A stretch of DNA of 36,918 bases from positions 1 to 36,918 of the forward strand of contig CAXMRM010000213.1 of assembly GCA_964196015.1 (NCBI GenBank), in the 5' to 3' direction. Source of the stretch: an uncultured Myxococcota bacterium. GTDB taxonomy: Bacteria > Myxococcota_A > Polyangia > Polyangiales > Houyiibacteriaceae. Shown here in pieces: positions 6,863 to 34,257 of the stretch. Position numbers and translations under genes: made by a program. The notes beneath the pieces were generated by a model. It was not told where the DNA came from and did not search any database. It saw only the letters and a program-made list of their open reading frames with translations. How positions within the stretch are numbered: the stretch's first letter is position 1; every line of letters starts with the position of its first letter.

Positions 6863-7885
6863 ATGACCGACGTCCGCAACGACTGGACCAGGGAAGAGGC
6901 CCGTGCGCTTCACGATCTGGCCCTGACCGACCTGTTGTTTCGGGCTCAAGAAGTGCATCGCGTCACACAACCGCGCAACGCGGTTCAGCTCTGCTCGCTG
7001 TTGTCGATCAAAACCGGCGCCTGCCAAGAAGACTGCTCCTACTGCCCACAGAGTTCGAAGTACGACACCGGCGTCGAAGCCGAGCGTCTGATGGATGTCG
7101 ATGACGTGCTCGAAAAGGCGCAACAGGCAAAAGAAGCGGGCGCGAGCCGGTTTTGCATGGGCGCGGCATGGCGGAGCCCGAAGAAGGGGAGCCGGCAGTT
7201 CCAGCAGGTGTTGGAGATGGTGCGTGGCGTTCGTGCGCTCGGTCTCGAAGCGTGCGCAACGCTCGGGATGCTCGACGACGAGCAAACCCAGGAGCTAAGG
7301 GGTGCTGGGCTCACCGCCTACAATCACAACCTCGACACCTCCGAGGAGTACTACGGGGAAATCATAACGACCCGCACGTACAGAGACCGTCTCGACACGA
7401 TTGCACGTGTGGCGGCTGCGGGTATTTCCGTCTGCGCCGGAGGCATCATCGGGATGGGGGAGAGCATCGACGATCGCGTGGGTATGCTCGTGACGCTCGC
7501 CAACCTTTCGCCGCAGCCCGAGAGTGTGCCGGTCAATGCCTTGGTGGCGGTGCCCGGCACACCCCTCAGTGATCAGCAGCCCGTCGACTCGCTCGAGCTC
7601 GCTCGCATGTGTGGCACCGCGCGCATCATGATGCCGGGCGCACGCGTGCGGCTTTCGGCCGGGCGCTCCTCACTCAGCCGTGAGGCGCAGCTCCTGTGCT
7701 TCATGGCCGGCGCGAACAGCATATTCTTCGGCGACAAGCTCCTCACGACCGGAAACCCGGACCACGACGCGGACCTCGCGTTGTTGCGCGATGCGGGGCT
7801 CTCTCCCCTCGAGCCAGACCCGGCCGACGGCAGCCATCCGCCGCACCGACAGCACACCGCGACCGGTTCAGACGCTGCGGAGTAG
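6863..7885 (+). CDS. bioB: biotin synthase
   Basis: Radical-SAM cluster motif [11 protein letters not shown], followed by [12 protein letters not shown] and other BioB-specific blocks. ATG 6863 gives a canonical N terminus. Confidence 0.95.
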
Positions 7886-7933
7886 CTCCGGGGTCTGGAA
7901 TCATTAGAGTTTTAGCAAGGGCGCTTATTGAAT

Positions 7934-7961
7934 TTGATTTGCAACTTCTAGCGGCTATAAA
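7934..7961 (+). promoter_or_regulatory. sigma70-like promoter of bfd inside an AT-rich island
   Basis: TTGATT (7934-7939), 16 nt, TATAAA (7956-7961), then 6 nt to ATG 7968. No Shine-Dalgarno. Confidence 0.4.
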
Positions 7962-7967
7962 TAAGTC

Positions 7968-8168
7968 ATGCTCGTGTGCCACTGCCACGCGGTTAACGAC
8001 CGGACGATTCGCCGATGCGTCAATGACGGCGCACGGAGCCGAAACGACATCCGCGAGGCCTGCGGCGCGGGCGCCTCCTGCGGCAGTTGCCGGCCGGTGA
8101 TCGATCGGTTGATCGAGTTGCATGGCCGTGCTCAGAGCGCGGTCGACGCAAGCGGCACGCAAGGCTGA
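7968..8168 (+). CDS. bfd: bacterioferritin-associated ferredoxin (BFD-like [2Fe-2S] domain)
   Basis: A 66-aa protein MLVCHCHAVNDRTIRR...ACGAGASCGSCRP with the CxC...CxxC pattern of Bfd. It lies directly upstream of bfr. Confidence 0.85.
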   Translation: MLVCHCHAVNDRTIRRCVNDGARSRNDIREACGAGASCGSCRPVIDRLIELHGRAQSAVDASGTQG

Positions 8169-8209
8169 CACTAGATCTGATAACGCCTTGCAAGTTCAGA
8201 CTTGCGCCA

Positions 8210-8238
8210 TTGCCACAGGCATGCCTGGTCTCTATGCT
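8210..8238 (+). promoter_or_regulatory. sigma70-like promoter of bfr with a 12-bp perfect palindrome in the spacer
   Basis: TTGCCA (8210-8215), 17 nt, TATGCT (8233-8238). The spacer contains CAGGCATGCCTG (8216-8227). AAGGA Shine-Dalgarno at 8245-8249. Confidence 0.35.
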
Positions 8239-8255
8239 CGCGCGAAGGAAAATTC

Positions 8256-8738
8256 ATGAAGGGCAACGACGAAGTCATCAACCTGCTCAACGAGGTCCTC
8301 ACCTCGGAGCTCACCGCCATCAACCAGTACTTCATTCATTCGAAAATGTGTGACGACTGGGGCTTCAACAAGCTGGCTGCGAAGAAGCGCGCGGAGTCGG
8401 TCGAAGAGATGGGACATGCGGACGTCATCATCTCGCGTATCCTCTTCCTCGAAGGCGTGCCCAATATGCAGCGCTACTTCCCCGTCAAGGTCGGCGAAGA
8501 TGCGATCGAGCAGCACCGCCTCGACCTCGAAGTCGAGTACGATGCCGTCAAGCGACTGAACGCTGGCATCGCTCTGTGTCTCGACGAGGGCGACAACGGC
8601 ACCCGCGAGCTCCTCGCGACGATCCTCCAGCAGGAGGAAGAGGGCATCGACTGGCTCGAAGCGCAGCTCCACCTCGTCGAGGCGGTTGGCAGGGAGCGCT
8701 ACCTGACCGAGCAGATGGTGGTCAACGCCGGGAACTAG
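8256..8738 (+). CDS. bfr: bacterioferritin
   Basis: [31 protein letters not shown]... is close to the canonical Bfr N terminus. Ferroxidase Glu/His residues and the heme-ligand Met (EEMGHAD) are present. AAGGA Shine-Dalgarno sits before ATG 8256. Confidence 0.95.
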
Positions 8739-8770
8739 CTCTCGCCCGCCTGGCTGCTACATGTCCGGCG

Positions 8771-10420
8771 ATGGAGGTTCATCCACTCGCTGGTCAGTCC
8801 GCGCCGCCCGACGCGCTCGTCGATGTCGCCAAGCTCATCGCCACCTACTACGACGGCAAGCCCGACCCCACCGAGCTGAGCCACCGCGTGAGCTTTGGAA
8901 CCTCCGGCCACCGCGGCTCGTCCCTTCGCCTCAGCTTCAACGAGGATCACATCCTCGCAACGACGCAGGCGATCTGTGACTACCGTGTTGCCGAGGGGAT
9001 CGATGGCCCGCTGTACATGGGTGTTGATACGCACGCGCTGTCAGAGCCGGCCGCGAAGACCGCTCTCGAGGTTCTTGCCGCGAACGGTGTTGAAACGTGC
9101 ATTGCGCTGGAGGGGCAGTTCACGCCGACCCCGGCTGTCTCGTTCGCCATTCTCGAGCACAACCGAAACAACGCGACCGACGCCGACGGCATCGTCGTGA
9201 CGCCGTCGCACAATCCACCCGAAGACGGCGGCTTCAAGTACAACCCACCGAACGGCGGTCCCGCGGGCACGGAAGTCACATCGTGGATCGAGCGACGCGC
9301 GAATCGGTTGTTGGCCGCCGGTCTCAAAGACGTCCGTCGCATTGTGTACGACGCCGCGCTTCGCGCCGATACGACTCACACTCACGATTTCATAGCGCCC
9401 TACGTCGAAGGACTCGATACCGTCCTCGACATGCGGGCGATTTCGAGCGCGGGCCTTCGAATTGGCGTCGACCCGATGGGCGGAGCTGGCATCGAGTACT
9501 GGCCTCGGATCGCAGAACGCTACGACCTCCGGCTCGACATCGTCAATGAGGCCATCGACCCGACATTTTCGTTCATGACGCTCGATTACGACGGGAAAAT
9601 CCGAATGGATTGCTCTTCGCCGTATGCCATGGCCCGCCTGGTCCATCTCCGAAACCGATTCGACATCGCGTTTGGAAACGACACGGATTTCGATCGGCAC
9701 GGCATCGTCACCAGCAGCTGGGGGCTTCTCAACCCGAATCACTACCTCAGCGTGGCGATCAACTATCTGTTCACCGAGCGCGGCTGGGACGAGCGCGCGG
9801 CCGTCGGAAAGACGCTCGTGAGCAGCGCGATGATCGACCGCGTGGCCAAAGCCCTCCGCCGCCGGCTCGCCGAGGTGCCCGTAGGCTTCAAGTGGTTCGT
9901 GCGAGGATTGCTCGACGGCTCATACGGGTTTGGCGGAGAGGAGAGCGCAGGCGCTTCGTTCCTGCGCAGAGACGGGAGCGTCTGGACGACCGACAAGGAC
10001 GGCATCCTCCTCAACCTCCTCGCCGCCGAGATCACCGCGACGACCGGCAGAGACCCCGGTGAGTGTTACCAAAGCCTCACCAAACAGTTCGGCGCGCCCG
10101 TGTACGCGCGCATCGATGCACCTGCGACCCCGGAGCAGAAGGCTGCCCTCGAGGGGATGAGCGAGTCGGATCTCGATGCGTCGGATCTCGCCGGCGAGCC
10201 GATCCAGCAGATGCTCACCACGGCGCCCGAGAACGACGCGCCGATTGGCGGGCTCAAGGTCACGACAGAGAACGGTTGGTTCGCCGCTCGGCCTTCCGGC
10301 ACCGAAGACGTTTACAAGATCTATGCGGAAAGCTTCGTTGGGCGCGAGCACCTGGCGTCTATTCAAAGAGAAGCCAAGGACCTGATCGGCCGCGTATTCG
10401 ACAAGAACGCGACGGCTTGA
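8771..10420 (+). CDS. pgm: phosphoglucomutase, alpha-D-glucose-phosphate specific
   Basis: Active-site loop [15 protein letters not shown], the GVDPMGGAG metal loop, GEESAG and a C-terminal [14 protein letters not shown] block. ATG 8771 was chosen; the upstream extension overlaps bfr. Confidence 0.95.
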
Positions 10421-10452
10421 GGGGCTGGCCCAATCGTGTTTCACTCCGCGGC

Positions 10453-11433
10453 GTGTTAGCGCTCGTAACTGGTGGTGGCGGCCGACTCGGCAACGTTCTC
10501 GTTCGACGACTCCTCGAGAACGGACAGACGGTGCGCGTGTTGGAGCCTGGCAGCCTGCCGGAGTCCCTCGCCGGCCTCGACATCGAGTTCATGTCTGGCT
10601 CGGTCCTCGACGCGGGAGACATTGGCCGGGCGACGGATGGCGCAGACGTCGTGTATCATCTTGCCGCTAAGATCGACCTAAGCCCTAAAAAAGACCCGAT
10701 GATGTACACCCTCAACGTCGAGGGAACCCGAAAGGTCGTCGAGGTGTGTCTTTCCCGTGGCCTGCGGTTGGTCCACACCAGCTCTCATCATGCGCTCGAG
10801 CGCGAGCCCCTCGATCAGCCGCTGACCGAAGACAAGCCTCTCGCCCTCAACGATAAGGGCGAGTACCACCGATCCAAAGCGATCGGCGAAACGATTGTCC
10901 TCGACGCCTGCGAGCGAGGGCTCGATGCCGTCATCGTGAACCCGGGCTCGATGATTGGGCCCTACGACTTCGAGCCGTCGATGATCGGCGCCGCGCTGAT
11001 CGACATGTACTTCGGTCGCGTCCCCGTCTTGCTCGAACTGTTGAGCGACTACGTCGATGTTCGGGATGTCGCCGACGGCATGATCGCCGCCGCCGACAAA
11101 GGCCGGCGTGGCGAGCGGTATTTCCTCACCGGTGACGTCGTCCCAGTCATGGAGATGGTGTCTCTCTACGCAGAGCTCACCGGCGCCAAAGTGCCTACCC
11201 GGGCACTGCCGCTCTGGGTGGGCTGGGTCCTGCTTCCGTTCGCCTTGCTGGGGAGCGCTGTGACCAAGAAGGAACCATTCATCACGGCCGATATGCTCCG
11301 CGCCAGCGTGTCCAACGAAGTGGTCTCCCACGACAAGGCACACCGCGAGCTTGGCTATACGATCCGCACGCTGCGCGAGTCGCTCACAGACGCGGTCGCC
11401 TGGTATCAGGAGCGCGGCTGGCTCAGCGCCTGA
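10453..11433 (+). CDS. NAD(P)-dependent epimerase/dehydratase-family SDR (possible long-chain-base/ceramide reductase)
   Basis: Rossmann motif LALVTGGGGRLG, catalytic YHRSK (YxxxK), and an extended-SDR C-terminal region. Start is GTG 10453; alternative TTG 10417 overlaps the pgm stop. The reductase role is inferred from the neighbouring ACP/oxoamine synthase genes. Confidence 0.85.
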   Translation: MLALVTGGGGRLGNVLVRRLLENGQTVRVLEPGSLPESLAGLDIEFMSGSVLDAGDIGRATDGADVVYHLAAKIDLSPKKDPMMYTLNVEGTRKVVEVCLSRGLRLVHTSSHHALEREPLDQPLTEDKPLALNDKGEYHRSKAIGETIVLDACERGLDAVIVNPGSMIGPYDFEPSMIGAALIDMYFGRVPVLLELLSDYVDVRDVADGMIAAADKGRRGERYFLTGDVVPVMEMVSLYAELTGAKVPTRALPLWVGWVLLPFALLGSAVTKKEPFITADMLRASVSNEVVSHDKAHRELGYTIRTLRESLTDAVAWYQERGWLSA

Positions 11434-12670: not shown

Positions 12671-12746
12671 TTGAAAACTGGCCGGTCGACCTGTTTCGAA
12701 TGTGGTACAGACCGGAAATTACGGTACCTTGTGGCCCGCTAGACCT

Positions 12747-13976
12747 ATGAGTTGGATTTCCGAAAAGGCGCACGCTGAGCTACAGCGGGTGCGCGACGCG
12801 CAGGCCAAGCAGATCTATCCGTATTTCCTCCCTTTCGAGTCGGGCGGATTGCATACGACCATCGGCGGCAAGCCCATCGTCAACTTCAGCTCGAACGACT
12901 ATCTCGGTCTGACCAACCATCCGAAGGTTAAAGAGGCGGCCAAAGCAGCGGTCGATCAGTTCGCCTGCGGGTTGAGCTCGTCGCGTGTTCAGGCGACCGC
13001 GACCCTGCACGTCGAGCTCGAGGAGCGGCTGGCGGCCTGGTACGGCTTCGAGAAAGCCTTGATCTTCACGACCGGGTATCAAGCGATGGTCGGCACGATC
13101 ATGTCCCTAGCCGACAAAGACACAACGGTCGTCCTCGACAACTTGAGCCACGCCTGCATTCTCGACGGCACGTTCTTGGCGGCGGGGACGCCGATGCGCG
13201 CGCCCGAGGTGCGCTTTTTCAATCACAACAGTGCCAAAGCGCTCGATCGAGTCCTGAGGAAGCGCGATCGGAAGAACGCGTTGGTGATAATCGAGGGCAT
13301 CTACTCGCTAGACGGCGACGAGGCTCACATCGAGGAGTTCGTCGAGGTCTGCGCTCAGCACGAGAACGTCGCCATCGTGTGCGACGATGCGCACGGGACG
13401 GGCACTCTTGGCGCTGGCGGCCGAGGCATCGTCGAGAAGTACGGCCTCGAGGGGAAGATCCCGGTGATCATCAGCACGTTCTCGAAGACGTTTGGAGGTA
13501 TCGGCGGGATCCTCCTCGGCGACGCCGACGTGGTCGACTTCATCAAACACACCGCGCGTTCGTTCTTGTTCAGCGCATCGTTGCCGGTGCCCATCGTGGC
13601 AGCGGCCAGCACGGTCCTCGACATGCTCGAGGCTGACGGCGAAGCGTTGGTCAGCGAGCTCCACGAGAAGTCGGCCTACATGCGCAAGGGCCTCACCGAT
13701 ATCGGGTTCGACCTCGGTGACAGCAACTCGCACATCATGCCCATCATGATTCGCGAGGAGACCAAGGCGATGTTCACGCATGTGGCTCTGCGGGAAAACG
13801 GCGTGTTGATGGTTCCGATCATGTACCCCGCCGTGAAAGAGGGACAAGAGCGGCTCCGCCTCAACGTCACCCGCGGCCACAGCTACGAGGACATGGACCG
13901 GGCGCTCGACTTGCTGCGCCAGTTCGCGGACTCGTTTTCGTTGGTGGACGAGCCGGCGAAGTCGGCGGCTACTTAG
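12747..13976 (+). CDS. spt: alpha-oxoamine synthase, serine palmitoyltransferase-like (BioF/KBL family)
   Basis: NFSSNDYLGL, DDAHGTGTLGAGGRG and STFSKTFGG (PLP lysine). The N-terminal YPYFLPFES block and adjacency to a dedicated ACP favour Spt over BioF. Family assignment is secure; substrate assignment is an inference. Confidence 0.85.
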   Translation: MSWISEKAHAELQRVRDAQAKQIYPYFLPFESGGLHTTIGGKPIVNFSSNDYLGLTNHPKVKEAAKAAVDQFACGLSSSRVQATATLHVELEERLAAWYGFEKALIFTTGYQAMVGTIMSLADKDTTVVLDNLSHACILDGTFLAAGTPMRAPEVRFFNHNSAKALDRVLRKRDRKNALVIIEGIYSLDGDEAHIEEFVEVCAQHENVAIVCDDAHGTGTLGAGGRGIVEKYGLEGKIPVIISTFSKTFGGIGGILLGDADVVDFIKHTARSFLFSASLPVPIVAAASTVLDMLEADGEALVSELHEKSAYMRKGLTDIGFDLGDSNSHIMPIMIREETKAMFTHVALRENGVLMVPIMYPAVKEGQERLRLNVTRGHSYEDMDRALDLLRQFADSFSLVDEPAKSAAT

Positions 13977-17621: not shown

Positions 17622-18722
17622 ATGCCTGGTAGTACGTTCGGCCAAGCCTTCCGCGTGACCACGGCAGGTGAAAGCCACGGTCCGGCCAACGTGGTCATCA
17701 TCGACGGCTGTCCTCCGGGTCTTCCGCTTTCGGAGGAAGACATCATTCCGGATCTCGAGCGACGTCGTCCCGGGCAGAGCAAGATCGTCACCCAGCGAAA
17801 AGAACCCGACGCGCCCGAGATCCTGTCCGGTGTGTTCGAAGGCGAGACCACCGGCACGCCCATTGCGATCATCGTTCGCAACCAAGACCAGCGCTCGCGC
17901 GACTACACCAACATCAAGGACGTGTACCGGCCGGGGCACGCCGACTACACGTTCGACGCGAAGTTCGGTCGTCGCGACTACCGCGGAGGCGGCCGAAGCA
18001 GCGCCCGCGAGACCGTGGCGCGCGTCGCGGCGGGAGCGGTCGCGAAGAAGCTGATTTTACATGCATTCGGCGGCGAGGTGATCGGTTACGTGACGCAGGT
18101 CGGGGACATTGAGGCGACGATTTCCCCCGTAGTGACCCTCGAACAGGTCGAAACGCTCCCCGATGGCGAGCCGAACATCGTTCGCTGCCCCGACGCGGCC
18201 GCGGCGGCACGGATGGTCGCGCTCATCGAGAAGATGCGAAAAGATCAGGACTCGATCGGAGGCGTCGCCGAAATCGTCGCGCGCAACGTGCCCGCGGGCT
18301 TGGGCGAGCCGGTGTTCGACAAGCTCAAGGCCGACCTCGGCAAGGCCTTGTTCAGCCTTCCCGCCGTGTTGGGGGTCGAGTATGGCGCAGGCTTTGCCGT
18401 CGCTACGGCGCGTGGCAGTGACAACAACGATGCGTTCGAGACCGACGCCGAGGGCAATATCCGCACACGCTCCAATCGCCACGGCGGCATGCTGGGCGGG
18501 ATCTCCAGCGGGATGCCGATCGTACTCCGCGCCGCCGTGAAGCCGACCAGCAGCCTTCCGCGTAGCCAAGACACGGTGACTTCGAGCGGAGACGCGACCA
18601 CGATCCGCACGACGGGCCGTCACGACCCGTGCTTGCTGCCGCGGTTCATTCCGATGGGCGAAGCGATGGTCGCGCTAGTGCTTGCGGACCACTGGTTGCG
18701 CTGGCGGGCGATTCGCGACTAG
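17622..18722 (+). CDS. aroC: chorismate synthase
   Basis: [37 protein letters not shown] and GGISSGMPI are canonical AroC signatures. Confidence 0.96.
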
Positions 18723-31842: not shown

Positions 31843-33582
31843 TTACGGGGTAGGAGCGTGTCCCTCTAGGCTCTCTAGGCTGGTCAGTTCTTGGGCTGCG
31901 TCTTCGGCCGCGAGGAAACCAAAGGTCAGTGCAGGGCCGATCGTGCCGCCGGCGCCCGGGTAGGTGCGGCCCATGACGGATGCCGCCGAGTTGCCCGCGG
32001 CATAGAGGCCGGGGATTGGCTGGCCGTCTTCCTTGAGTACGCGGCTGTGCTCGTCGATGACGAGGCCGCCTTTCGTTCCGAGGTCCCCCGGATAGATCTG
32101 CACGGCGTAGAAAGGACCGGTTTCGATCGGGCCGAGTGAGCAGTTGGGTTTCACATTCGGATCGCCGTAGTAGCGATCCTGCGCGCTCCAGCCACGGTTG
32201 TAGTCCGGGTCTTCGCCTTTGACGGCGTACTCGTTGAACCGGGTGATCGCCGCCTTCGCGGTCGCCGCCGGAATTTTGAGTTGCTCACAGAGCTCGTCGA
32301 GGGTCTTGGCCTTGTAGAGGAATTTGCCATCGCGATAGCGGCGTGGGAGCTGCTTGTCGGGCATGACCTTGCCGGGCGCGACCGGTCCAGCGATGGACGA
32401 CTTGCGATACGTCGCGTCAAAGATGTGAAACCAGCGAGGGTCAGCCGCGCCGGTCTTTGCCACGTCGTCGTACATGCCGTTGACGACATCGATATAAGGC
32501 GCCGCCTCGTTGGTGAACCGCTTGCCGTCTTGGTTGACGAACAATCCATGCGGAAGGCTCTTCTCGACGACCAACACCCACGAAAACGGCGACTTCGGCA
32601 CTAAGGACACGGGCGTCCACCAGGCTTCGTCCATCAGATCGAGTGCTCCGCCCGCATCGCGTCCCATGCGAATCGCATCGCCGGTGTTCGACGGTGTCCC
32701 GGCCGTCCATTCGGTCGTGATGGGATGCCGCTGATATTGCTGCCGCATCTCGAGGTTCCGCGAAAACCCGCCCGCCGCGAGGACTACGCCACGGCGGGCC
32801 TTCACGCGAAGGGTGTCGCCCTCCTTGTTGAGCACCGCGCCGACGACCTTCCCATCTTCGAATACGAGCTCTTCGACGCCGGTGTTGAGCCACACGGGCA
32901 CGTTGCGCTCCTTGAGCGAAAGCAGGAGCCGGCCCATCAGCGAGTTGCCCGCGCAAAGCTTGGTGTCGCGCCCCCAGCGCTTACGTTTGAAGTGGCGCAG
33001 CATGTACAAGAACATCTGCCACGCCATGAACATCATGGTCCGAAAGCCGACGCCGATCGCTGCGTGCGCTTCCTTCGCGGTAATGCCGAATTTTCCAAGA
33101 ATCTGTGATTGCGGGTGGGGCTTACGCAGCCGAATCATATCCTCACGTAGCTTCGCCCCATCAAACGGCAGCGGGTCCATCGATCGTCCGCCGGGACGCC
33201 CGCCCGGCGCTTCGGGGTAATAGTCGGTGTACTTCGCGAGCGGGACGTATCGGACGTGTGTCTTTTCGTGCAAGTACGCGAGCACCCTCTTGCTCTCGCG
33301 GATGTACAGCCTTAACTTACTGTCGGGCACTTCGCCCTTCGTAATGTGTTTCAAGTACTGGAAGCCTTCTTCGTCGGAATCTGGGATGCCTTCTTTTGCC
33401 ATCCCCGGGTTGTTGGCGACCCAGCAAACGCCGCCCGACATCGCCGAGTTGCCCCCGTAGAGTTCGCTCTTTTCGACTAGAAGCACGTCCAATCCGAGGT
33501 CGTGTCCACGCAGCCCAGCGCCCATGCCGGCGGCGCCGCTTCCCATCACGAGTAAATCGACTGTACGGTCCCACTCCGCCAT
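31843..33582 (-). CDS. kstD: FAD-dependent oxidoreductase, 3-oxosteroid 1-dehydrogenase (KstD)-like
   Basis: N-terminal dinucleotide fold DLLVMGSGAAGMGAGL...LLVEKSELYGGNSAMSGG. C-terminal GLYAAGNSAASVMGRTYPGAGGTIGPALTFG. The length and internal blocks fit the KstD/fumarate-reductase flavoprotein family. GAGGAG Shine-Dalgarno sits before ATG 33582. The gene symbol is tentative. Confidence 0.82.
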   Translation of the reverse strand: MAEWDRTVDLLVMGSGAAGMGAGLRGHDLGLDVLLVEKSELYGGNSAMSGGVCWVANNPGMAKEGIPDSDEEGFQYLKHITKGEVPDSKLRLYIRESKRVLAYLHEKTHVRYVPLAKYTDYYPEAPGGRPGGRSMDPLPFDGAKLREDMIRLRKPHPQSQILGKFGITAKEAHAAIGVGFRTMMFMAWQMFLYMLRHFKRKRWGRDTKLCAGNSLMGRLLLSLKERNVPVWLNTGVEELVFEDGKVVGAVLNKEGDTLRVKARRGVVLAAGGFSRNLEMRQQYQRHPITTEWTAGTPSNTGDAIRMGRDAGGALDLMDEAWWTPVSLVPKSPFSWVLVVEKSLPHGLFVNQDGKRFTNEAAPYIDVVNGMYDDVAKTGAADPRWFHIFDATYRKSSIAGPVAPGKVMPDKQLPRRYRDGKFLYKAKTLDELCEQLKIPAATAKAAITRFNEYAVKGEDPDYNRGWSAQDRYYGDPNVKPNCSLGPIETGPFYAVQIYPGDLGTKGGLVIDEHSRVLKEDGQPIPGLYAAGNSAASVMGRTYPGAGGTIGPALTFGFLAAEDAAQELTSLESLEGHAPTP

Positions 33583-33617
33583 CGCGGCTCTCCTCTGCTA
33601 CGGGTTGGTTCGCAAAA

Positions 33618-33631
33618 TAGAACATGTTCTA
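33618..33631. promoter_or_regulatory. KstR-type (TetR family) operator-like perfect palindrome TAGAACATGTTCTA
   Basis: A 14-bp perfect inverted repeat fits the published KstR consensus TnnAACnnGTTnnA. Thirty-five nt separate it from the kstD-like ATG. It covers the predicted -10 of that gene. Confidence 0.6.
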
Positions 33632-33649
33632 GCAAAACGGCCCTGTCAA
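33621..33649 (-). promoter_or_regulatory. sigma70-like promoter of the kstD-like gene
   Basis: On the minus strand: consensus -35 TTGACA (33649-33644), a 17-nt spacer, then CATGTT (33626-33621) inside the palindrome. Confidence 0.4.
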
Positions 33650-33741
33650 ACGCCCAGGATCTTGCGGCAGGGGGTACCTGGCGCTAGAAAAAAGCAAACC
33701 TTTCCAAGGTGTTGAGCAGCCAGCTGCTCGGAGGTTCCACG

Positions 33742-34257
33742 TTGATTCGTCCCATTCTCTTTTACCCAGACAAACGTCTCCGCGAGCCCGGCAAAGAGGT
33801 CGAGGAGTTCGATGCTGAGTTGCATCGGTTGATCGAGGACATGGCGGAGACGATGTACGTGGCCCCGGGCGTCGGATTAGCCGCTCCTCAGATCGGGGTG
33901 TCCAAGCGGCTGTTCATCGTGGACGTTGCCAGCGACGACGACGAGCCGAGCGATCTTCGCGTTTTCATCAATCCGGAGATCATCGCGGCCGAGGGTGAGA
34001 CCGTCTTCAACGAAGGCTGCCTCTCGTTTCCCGGTATTCGCGAAGACATCGACCGCGCCGAGCGGGTCACGATCCGCGCATTCGACAAGGACGGCAAGCC
34101 GTTCGAGCTCGAGGCGGACGGTCTGTTGGCGATCGCGATTCAACACGAAAACGATCACCTCGACGGCAAGTTGATGATCGACAACCTCAGCGTGTTGCGC
34201 CGCCGGATGGTACATCGCGCAATGACCAAGCGAGCTGCGGCCGAAGCCGCGCAGTGA
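33742..34257 (+). CDS. def: peptide deformylase
   Basis: Motifs GVGLAAPQIG, EGCLSFPG and HENDHLDG. TTG 33742 is preceded by GGAGG with a 7-nt spacer and yields the canonical MIRPILFYPD N terminus. Alternative GTG start at 33709. Confidence 0.95.
   Translation: MIRPILFYPDKRLREPGKEVEEFDAELHRLIEDMAETMYVAPGVGLAAPQIGVSKRLFIVDVASDDDEPSDLRVFINPEIIAAEGETVFNEGCLSFPGIREDIDRAERVTIRAFDKDGKPFELEADGLLAIAIQHENDHLDGKLMIDNLSVLRRRMVHRAMTKRAAAEAAQ

Follow-up and report, generated by a model that had tools for sequence, protein, structure and literature searches.

A conserved, probable KstR-type operator in front of a lone kstD-like gene of uncultured Polyangiales (Myxococcota)

The closest described counterpart of the system presented here is KstR (Rv3574 / MSMEG_6042) of Mycobacterium and Rhodococcus, a TetR-type repressor whose operator consensus, TnnAACnnGTTnnA, was set by electrophoretic mobility shift assay (EMSA) for the M. 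tuberculosis and M. smegmatis proteins (Kendall et al., 2007; PMC1995591). The KstR autoregulatory site reads ACTAGAACGTGTTCTAATAG, an AT-centred site (TGTAACATGTTCTA) in the Rv3570c/Rv3571 intergenic region is KstR-positive in EMSA, and the mycobacterial operator partly overlaps the -10 element (PMC1995591). Here we analyse a 36,918-nucleotide (nt) stretch of contig CAXMRM010000213.1 (hereafter ‘the window’) from an uncultured member of the Myxococcota, in which a palindrome of this type lies in front of a lone kstD-like gene, predicted to encode a 3-ketosteroid delta-1-dehydrogenase. We consider it highly probable, from the sequence of the window and its relatives, that this palindrome is the operator of a KstR-like TetR repressor which is encoded elsewhere in the genome and controls kstD. 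With the mycobacterial and rhodococcal system it would share the TetR type of regulator, the consensus, the half-site TAGAAC and, as predicted, the overlap with the -10, and the regulon known from relatives of the window has, like that of mycobacteria, a site before the regulator's own transcription unit, several dispersed loci and targets of the kstD, hsaA, kshA, ltp3/ltp4-like, fadD and fadE types. It departs from the mycobacterial system in its host (uncultured Polyangiales, Myxococcota), in a regulator that is 32% identical to KstR and below the NCBIfam cut-off, in the place of kstR, which is the last gene of an operon whereas mycobacterial kstR is divergent from fadE34, and in a kstD embedded between priA and def-fmt.

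Mycobacterial KstR2 (Rv3557c), likewise a TetR repressor, controls steroid (C/D-ring) catabolism from a palindromic operator; that operator has a different sequence, of the AnCAAGnnCTTGnT type, and the Polyangiales regulator described below matches the NCBIfam model of KstR, not that of KstR2. Amongst Gram-negatives, TesR and TeiR of Comamonas testosteroni, which are LuxR-type activators (PMC6678751), and EdcR of Caenibius tardaugens, a TetR protein with its own operator (PMC8700777), likewise control 9,10-seco or estrogen catabolism, and none of the three works with the KstR motif. Aerobic steroid catabolism and KstR control have been described, in genome and metagenome surveys, for Actinobacteria and some Proteobacteria, whilst searches of the open full-text literature turned up nothing on KstR, KshA or the seco pathway for Myxococcota or Polyangiales, and a large metagenome survey of steroid catabolism mentions neither Myxococcales nor Deltaproteobacteria. 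What is described here is a KstR system in a new phylum; the mechanism itself is not new.

Read directly from the window, TAGAACATGTTCTA at 33618-33631 is a perfect 14-bp palindrome which satisfies 8 of the 8 fixed positions of TnnAACnnGTTnnA and also has the preferred half-site TAGAAC. An initial annotation of the window had described it as a palindrome fitting the KstR consensus, 35 nt from the ATG (33582, minus strand) of a 579-aa open reading frame (ORF) and different from common mycobacterial sites only at its centre; all of this was borne out, the central dinucleotide being AT instead of the GT/AC usual in mycobacteria. Palindromy by itself is ordinary, since the window contains five perfect 14-bp palindromes against 3.8 expected, and the degenerate consensus TnnAACnnGTTnnA, with 0.14 matches expected per window, is matched at least once in 13% of shuffled windows. 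The strong form TAGAACnnGTTCTA is expected 4.4e-4 times from the composition of the window (63.8% G+C) and occurs at the palindrome only, with no further site even when two mismatches are allowed. A reading of the palindrome as a hairpin or terminator was set aside: it has no loop, its arms are AT-rich and it lies upstream of both genes.

Relatives of the flavoprotein encoded by the kstD-like gene were searched for with one genome per species, yielding about 50 loci from metagenome-assembled genomes (MAGs) labelled Polyangiales, Polyangiaceae, Sandaracinaceae, Myxococcales, Myxococcota or delta proteobacterium, in which the flavoprotein is 70-95% identical to that of the window. Every locus that reaches the upstream region has the palindrome, 38-61 nt before the ATG of the kstD-like gene, and 48 species-level Polyangiales/Myxococcota genomes show little or no change in the operator at this orthologous promoter; three loci have AA at its centre, the three most distant have AC or GT, and most have AT. 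All 48 perfect TAGAACnnGTTCTA sites present in 832,595 bp of orthologous loci lie at the kstD promoter; sites with one mismatch are absent, and those with two number nine, as many as background alone would give. Across 46 aligned intergenic regions the operator is 100% conserved save for one column at 90%, and an upstream TTGACA hexamer is invariant, whilst the 12-nt spacer between the two shows column identities of 40-60%. An invariant operator and TTGACA around a varying spacer is, as judged from the alignment, the phylogenetic footprint of a promoter plus operator. The ordinary number of palindromes and the frequency of the loose consensus in shuffled windows would leave room for a chance sequence without function, but we attach practically no probability to that explanation, which is refuted by a site kept in 48 species-level genomes despite diverged flanks, at a fixed distance from a conserved -35 and with no extra copies in 833 kb. 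These comparisons support the palindrome as a real, conserved site of the predicted KstR-type repressor, the conservation being the decisive evidence.

Variants of this arrangement were seen in some loci. In two Sandaracinaceae MAGs (loci L045 and L048) TTGACA and the operator are 24 nt apart, not 12. The nearest outgroup KstD proteins (55-58% identity) come from MAGs labelled ‘Proteobacteria’ (L051-L053), in which KstR-type sites occur at 5702-5739 of L051, at 705-742 and 9934-9976 of L052, and at 9942, 18061-18098 and 20866-20901 of L053; at several of these promoters the sites are paired, 24-29 nt apart, forming tandem operators unseen in the Polyangiales loci.

The flavoprotein has a Pfam FAD_binding_2 domain (PF00890) over residues 9-547 (E 1.5e-79), with the N-terminal GxGxxG motif present as GSGAAG (residues 13-18), and its two best NCBIfam families are the KstD equivalogs NF009478 and NF005882, though it scores below the cut-offs of both (584 vs 789 bits and 578 vs 788 bits respectively). 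Its best solved relative is AcmB (7P18), the cholest-4-en-3-one delta-1-dehydrogenase of Sterolibacterium denitrificans, which represents a KstD subgroup with a membrane-associated domain and whose catalytic tyrosines have been described (PMC9736390). The alignment to AcmB runs in one stretch over residues 6-563, including the membrane-associated domain (E 4.9e-145, 44% identity over 550 residues), whilst that to KstD1 of Rhodococcus (4C3X) comes in two pieces without the middle region. All of the catalytic residues are kept in the window protein, as Y121, Y363, Y541 and G545 in the alignments to 4C3X and 7P18; the AcmB counterparts are Tyr118, Tyr363, Tyr536 and Gly540, the number of the glycine being read from the alignment, and in R. 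erythropolis KstD1 numbering we take the same residues to be Tyr119, Tyr318, Tyr487 and Gly491. Its match to AcmB and its Tyr/Tyr/Tyr/Gly set place the flavoprotein, by sequence, in the AcmB subgroup of KstD, with predicted 3-ketosteroid dehydrogenase activity; that it belongs to the KstD family had been proposed in the initial annotation. AcmB belongs to the oxygen-independent cholesterol pathway of a betaproteobacterium, whereas the partner genes found here are oxygenase-dependent (KshA-like, HsaA, HsaC), and we know of no KstR-type control of AcmB.

Gene order around the kstD-like gene is near-constant amongst the relatives (response regulator, Ser/Thr kinase, tsaD, priA, kstD-like gene, def, fmt, pduO-type adenosyltransferase). 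As had been described, kstD stands alone between priA and def-fmt in a myxobacterial host. The kstD-like gene is conserved as strongly as these housekeeping neighbours: in locus L003 the flavoprotein is 91% identical to that of the window, as against 83-87% for priA, tsaD, def and fmt.

On the minus strand of the window, TTGACA (33649-33644) lies 12 nt from the palindrome and 17 nt from CATGTT, a putative -10 inside it and the only plausible one (Table 1). At two further promoters of the clade, which belong to the steroid gene cluster described below, the left half-site TAGAAC follows 17 nt after a -35-like TTGACG or TGGACA and would there serve as the -10; at the kstD promoter only 12 nt separate TTGACA from TAGAAC, so that the -10 would fall on CATGTT at the operator centre. 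In all three promoter classes the operator would thus be placed on the -10 region, and a bound repressor would cover it. Wherever the spacing is 12 nt the first central base of the operator is A (AT, AA or AC), whilst the remaining operators of the clade have A or G there. This A would correspond to the conserved -11 A of a promoter, a pattern which, in what are related sequences, is suggestive of the proposed -10 placement at kstD.

Table 1. Coordinates of the kstD-like gene, its predicted control elements and the divergent gene in the window.
Feature	Position	Strand	Basis
kstD-like gene, AcmB-type 3-ketosteroid delta-1-dehydrogenase (predicted), 579 aa	31843..33582	-	Pfam, NCBIfam, PDB alignment
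Shine-Dalgarno GAGGAG of the kstD-like gene	33590..33595	-	7 nt before ATG; AAGGAG/GAGGAG block kept in orthologues
KstR-type operator (putative), perfect palindrome TAGAACATGTTCTA	33618..33631	.	Sole consensus match in the window; conserved
Putative -10 CATGTT inside the operator	33621..33626	-	17-nt spacing from the -35
-35 hexamer TTGACA of the kstD-like promoter	33644..33649	-	100% conserved; function inferred
def, peptide deformylase, divergent neighbour	33742..34257	+	Pfam and NCBIfam matches

The def ORF as listed starts at GTG 33709, and the deformylase domain begins at residue 13 of that listed ORF; the start is probably the TTG at 33742, which has a Shine-Dalgarno sequence, GGAGG, at 33730-33734. 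Between kstD and def, GGATCTTGCGG (33657-33667) and GGCGCTAGAAAAAA (33680-33693) form two further blocks that are 90-100% conserved over 46 loci; read on the def strand, they would suit a def promoter composed of TTGCGG, 17 nt and TAGAAA. Their position bears on whether the palindrome mainly regulates def-fmt-pduO, or both directions, and not kstD alone. Such a role could be envisaged, as the palindrome sits in the shared 159-bp intergenic region and mycobacterial KstR sites often serve divergent gene pairs (PMC1995591), but the putative def promoter blocks lie between the palindrome and def, and the palindrome would centre ~70 nt upstream of a def start site, a distance at which a TetR repressor would not be expected to occlude the polymerase. 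Moreover, steroid control of the essential genes def and fmt has no rationale, and in L045 and L048, where def and kstD are ~2.5 kb apart (insert ~7300-10000), the site follows kstD and not def. We give regulation of def-fmt-pduO very little credence, and found no evidence that the palindrome, noted in the initial annotation as facing the def-fmt operon, controls it; the blocks that resemble a def promoter lie beyond the site.

The regulator is encoded outside the window. Neither a Pfam scan nor phmmer searches with TetR(B) and M. tuberculosis KstR, run against every window ORF of 100 aa or more, revealed a TetR gene, and Pfam and NCBIfam scans, which took in essentially all plausible window genes, found no second steroid-ring gene, in keeping with what had been stated of the window. 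Two more distant loci, L055 and L058, contain TetR genes which resemble M. tuberculosis KstR and have the palindrome TGAAACGTGTTTCA directly upstream. Using a TetR of this type as query, and then a Polyangiaceae match, we retrieved a large family of TetR proteins, ~192 aa long, that combine PF00440 with PF17925 and in which all organism-named members are from Polyangiales, Polyangiaceae, Sandaracinaceae, Myxococcales, Myxococcota or Deltaproteobacteria. The best PDB matches of a representative, P0132, are M. tuberculosis KstR structures (5AQC, 5CW8 and 3MNL; E about 6e-21, residues 3-189), followed by the uncharacterised 3BJB (E 3e-14) and by other TetR proteins at E 1e-7 or weaker, and its best NCBIfam family is NF033703, cholesterol catabolism transcriptional regulator KstR (E 1.3e-36). 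With a score below the cut-off of this model, which was presumably built on actinobacterial sequences, P0132 is by sequence a KstR-like protein rather than a certified equivalog, KstR being its closest characterised relative. A KstR-like TetR of the kind expected by the initial annotation thus exists in the clade.

The TGAAACGTGTTTCA palindrome occurs four times in each of L055 (6804, 6840, 17472 and 18408) and L058 (6790, 6826, 18289 and 19224), two of the copies in each case lying directly upstream of the TetR gene; the ‘Rickettsiales’ label of these MAGs seems doubtful. A second group of Myxococcales/Deltaproteobacteria contigs, of higher G+C content (69-71%), has its own KstR-like TetR (L080, L084 and L088), with an autoregulatory site, TGAAACRTGTTCTA, 23-24 nt before the TetR start codon. 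Sites of this group are located at 9978 and 17998 of L080, 9977 of L084, and 9976 and 14178 of L088, and L080 has a further site in front of a DUF35-thiolase-FadD-FadE operon.

On contigs with a G+C content of 60-63%, like that of the window, kstR is the last gene of an operon encoding SCP2, a ChsH2-type DUF35 protein, two Ltp-type thiolases (Ltp4-like and Ltp3-like), an acyl-CoA (coenzyme A) synthetase (FadD) and a KshA-like oxygenase. The thiolases exceed the cut-offs of NCBIfam PRK07937 and PRK08313 and the synthetase that of PRK07798, whilst the KshA-like oxygenase has Rieske and KshA_C domains. Adjoining this operon are a divergent amidohydrolase gene and an operon with HsaA (407 bits; cut-off 450), in which genes for an HsaEFG-type hydratase, aldehyde dehydrogenase and aldolase are accompanied by FadE genes and, in some clusters, by HsaC-like and HsaD-like genes; the cluster further includes more FadE genes and, upstream, a FadA5-like thiolase gene. 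By these assignments the cluster is the predicted gene set of the 9,10-seco steroid pathway together with side-chain beta-oxidation. Every cluster of this kind has two consensus sites and no more. The SCP2...kstR operon is preceded by one of them at ~55 nt (TAGAACAYGTTTCA or TAGAACGTGTTTCA); the amidohydrolase/hsaA intergenic region has the other (TAGAACRTGTTCTA and variants), which is identical to TAGAACATGTTCTA in L089-L091 and L110-L112. The motif therefore recurs, as had been anticipated, at the promoters of steroid genes.

Both loci occur together in one MAG (whole-genome shotgun prefix DATIUW01; assembly GCA_035466435.1), in which the kstR cluster is found on DATIUW010000237.1 (L094) and the priA-kstD-def locus with its palindrome on DATIUW010000088.1 (L031; Polyangiales bacterium isolate SMAG_U15991), so that the regulator, the two cluster operators and the distant kstD operator are present in the same MAG. 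Consecutive contig numbers, contig_12173 for L092 and contig_12174 for L022, may likewise reflect a single assembly. The proposal of a dispersed KstR-like regulon in a myxobacterium-like genome is in this way supported in relatives and in one MAG with both loci, and we infer that the regulator is also present in the window's own genome.

Public metagenome contigs were also scanned for the exact 16-mer CTAGAACATGTTCTAG, giving at least 80 readable loci. Among the matches listed, 49 of 80 loci have CTAGAACATGTTCTAG next to a homologue of kshA, hsaA, hsaC, hsaD, kstD or fadE, most often between divergent kshA and hsaA genes on contigs of 67-73% G+C, whilst the low-G+C matches have no steroid genes; the matches listed are mostly of high G+C content and probably actinobacterial, and no new Polyangiales regulon members were found among them. 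By this association CTAGAACATGTTCTAG is a recurrent, if putative, steroid-gene operator in nature. Two of the low-G+C contigs hold several copies with no steroid gene nearby: a 2.3-kb contig of 43% G+C (L174) has five exact copies between 78 and 732, spaced 236, 119, 159 and 125 nt, and a contig of 36% G+C (L177) has two copies 21 nt apart (1219-1255).

With the cluster sites in hand, it can be asked whether another regulator, either a TetR paralogue or an unrelated GAAC/GTTC-binding protein, acts at the palindrome, the match to KstR being coincidental or convergent. Most loci have no TetR gene adjoining kstD, just as the window has none, the KstR-like protein falls below the equivalog cut-off, and L042 and L049 have, 3.4 kb from kstD, another TetR that resembles KstR weakly (E 3e-5). 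That TetR was rejected as the cognate regulator, however, as there is no such site near it and it is absent from the other 45 loci. The motif fronts the operon containing the KstR-like gene, which is the typical autoregulatory arrangement, as well as hsaA in every cluster examined, and the half-site TAGAAC is identical to that defined experimentally in mycobacteria (PMC1995591). Taken together, these observations make a different regulator very unlikely.

In the mechanism that we propose, a dimer of the KstR-like repressor would bind TAGAACATGTTCTA, and, with the operator overlapping the -10 of the TTGACA promoter, would keep RNA polymerase off kstD. A steroid-derived ligand would bind the repressor, which would then leave the DNA; the ligand of mycobacterial KstR is the CoA thioester of a side-chain-oxidised sterol. 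Released from repression, kstD would be expressed together with the physically separate steroid cluster, comprising the side-chain beta-oxidation genes, the KshA-like oxygenase, HsaA, HsaC, HsaD, HsaEFG and kstR itself. The kstD gene would on this account be a dispersed member of the regulon, fixed between priA and def-fmt in the ancestor of this Polyangiales lineage. Binding of the repressor to the site, occlusion of the -10 and the nature of the inducer are predicted. Several observations weigh against control of kstD by a KstR-like repressor in this manner. CATGTT agrees with TATAAT at only 3 of 6 positions (A2, T3 and T6), and a consensus promoter scan of 33400-33900 calls no promoter; of the repressor geometry put forward in the initial annotation, the TTGACA and the 17-nt spacing stand, whilst the identity of the -10 is weak. 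P0132 scores 125.9 bits against the KstR equivalog cut-off of 280, and it is 32% identical to M. tuberculosis KstR overall, a figure that rises to 45% for the DNA-binding domain. Finally, the regulator is linked to the kstD locus by a single MAG, in which a binning error is possible, and by shared taxonomy.

A KstR-like regulon of this composition could serve more than one end. The regulon and KstD might act on the cell's own sterols or polycyclic lipids, in remodelling or turnover, and not on external steroids as food: some myxobacteria make sterols (PMC10202945; PMC6678751), kstD behaves like a core gene in its fixed position and in being conserved as strongly as priA, def and fmt, and the window has a gene for an HpnA/SdmB-like short-chain dehydrogenase/reductase (SDR). 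Against this, the co-regulated cluster is the catabolic 9,10-seco set (HsaA, HsaC, HsaD, HsaEFG, KshA-like oxygenase and beta-oxidation), which destroys the ring system, and none of the loci examined showed a gene for sterol biosynthesis, so we regard an endogenous role as unlikely. A broader proposal, to which we would give an even chance, is that a widespread uncultured Polyangiales family of soils, sediments and sludge degrades sterols by the oxygen-dependent 9,10-seco pathway under a KstR system otherwise actinobacterial, probably acquired by ancient inter-phylum transfer, with kstD kept as a core gene. If true, this would add a third major lineage of aerobic steroid degraders and suggest eukaryotic prey or detritus as a source from which predatory or saprophytic myxobacteria harvest sterols. 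Myxobacteria are not known for steroid degradation, and the present data point to unrecognized steroid degraders in a lineage that is abundant in environmental metagenomes, with a concrete testable regulon consisting of an operator, a candidate repressor and three promoters. The sequence of the KstR operator is almost unchanged across phyla, and it could therefore serve to mark steroid-catabolic promoters in genomes.

The rest of the window consists, according to domain scans, of housekeeping and typical myxobacterial functions, including tmk, SCO1, aminotransferases, a biotin synthase-like protein, phosphoglucomutase, serine acetyltransferase, a MaoC dehydratase, a HemQ-like protein, chorismate synthase, a multihaem cytochrome, MlaE, a DUF4388 response regulator and a Ser/Thr kinase. 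The SDR mentioned above (10063-11433, plus strand) has as its best NCBIfam matches HpnA, a hopanoid-associated epimerase (239 bits), and SdmB, a sterol C-4 demethylase partner (185 bits), both below cut-off; no KstR site lies upstream of it, and the listed ORF start is probably too far upstream. A pyridoxal phosphate-dependent acyltransferase (12702-13976, plus strand) has serine palmitoyltransferase as its best match (320 bits, below cut-off), and its gene, which adjoins those for the serine acetyltransferase-like protein and the MaoC dehydratase, may have a role in sphingolipid synthesis.

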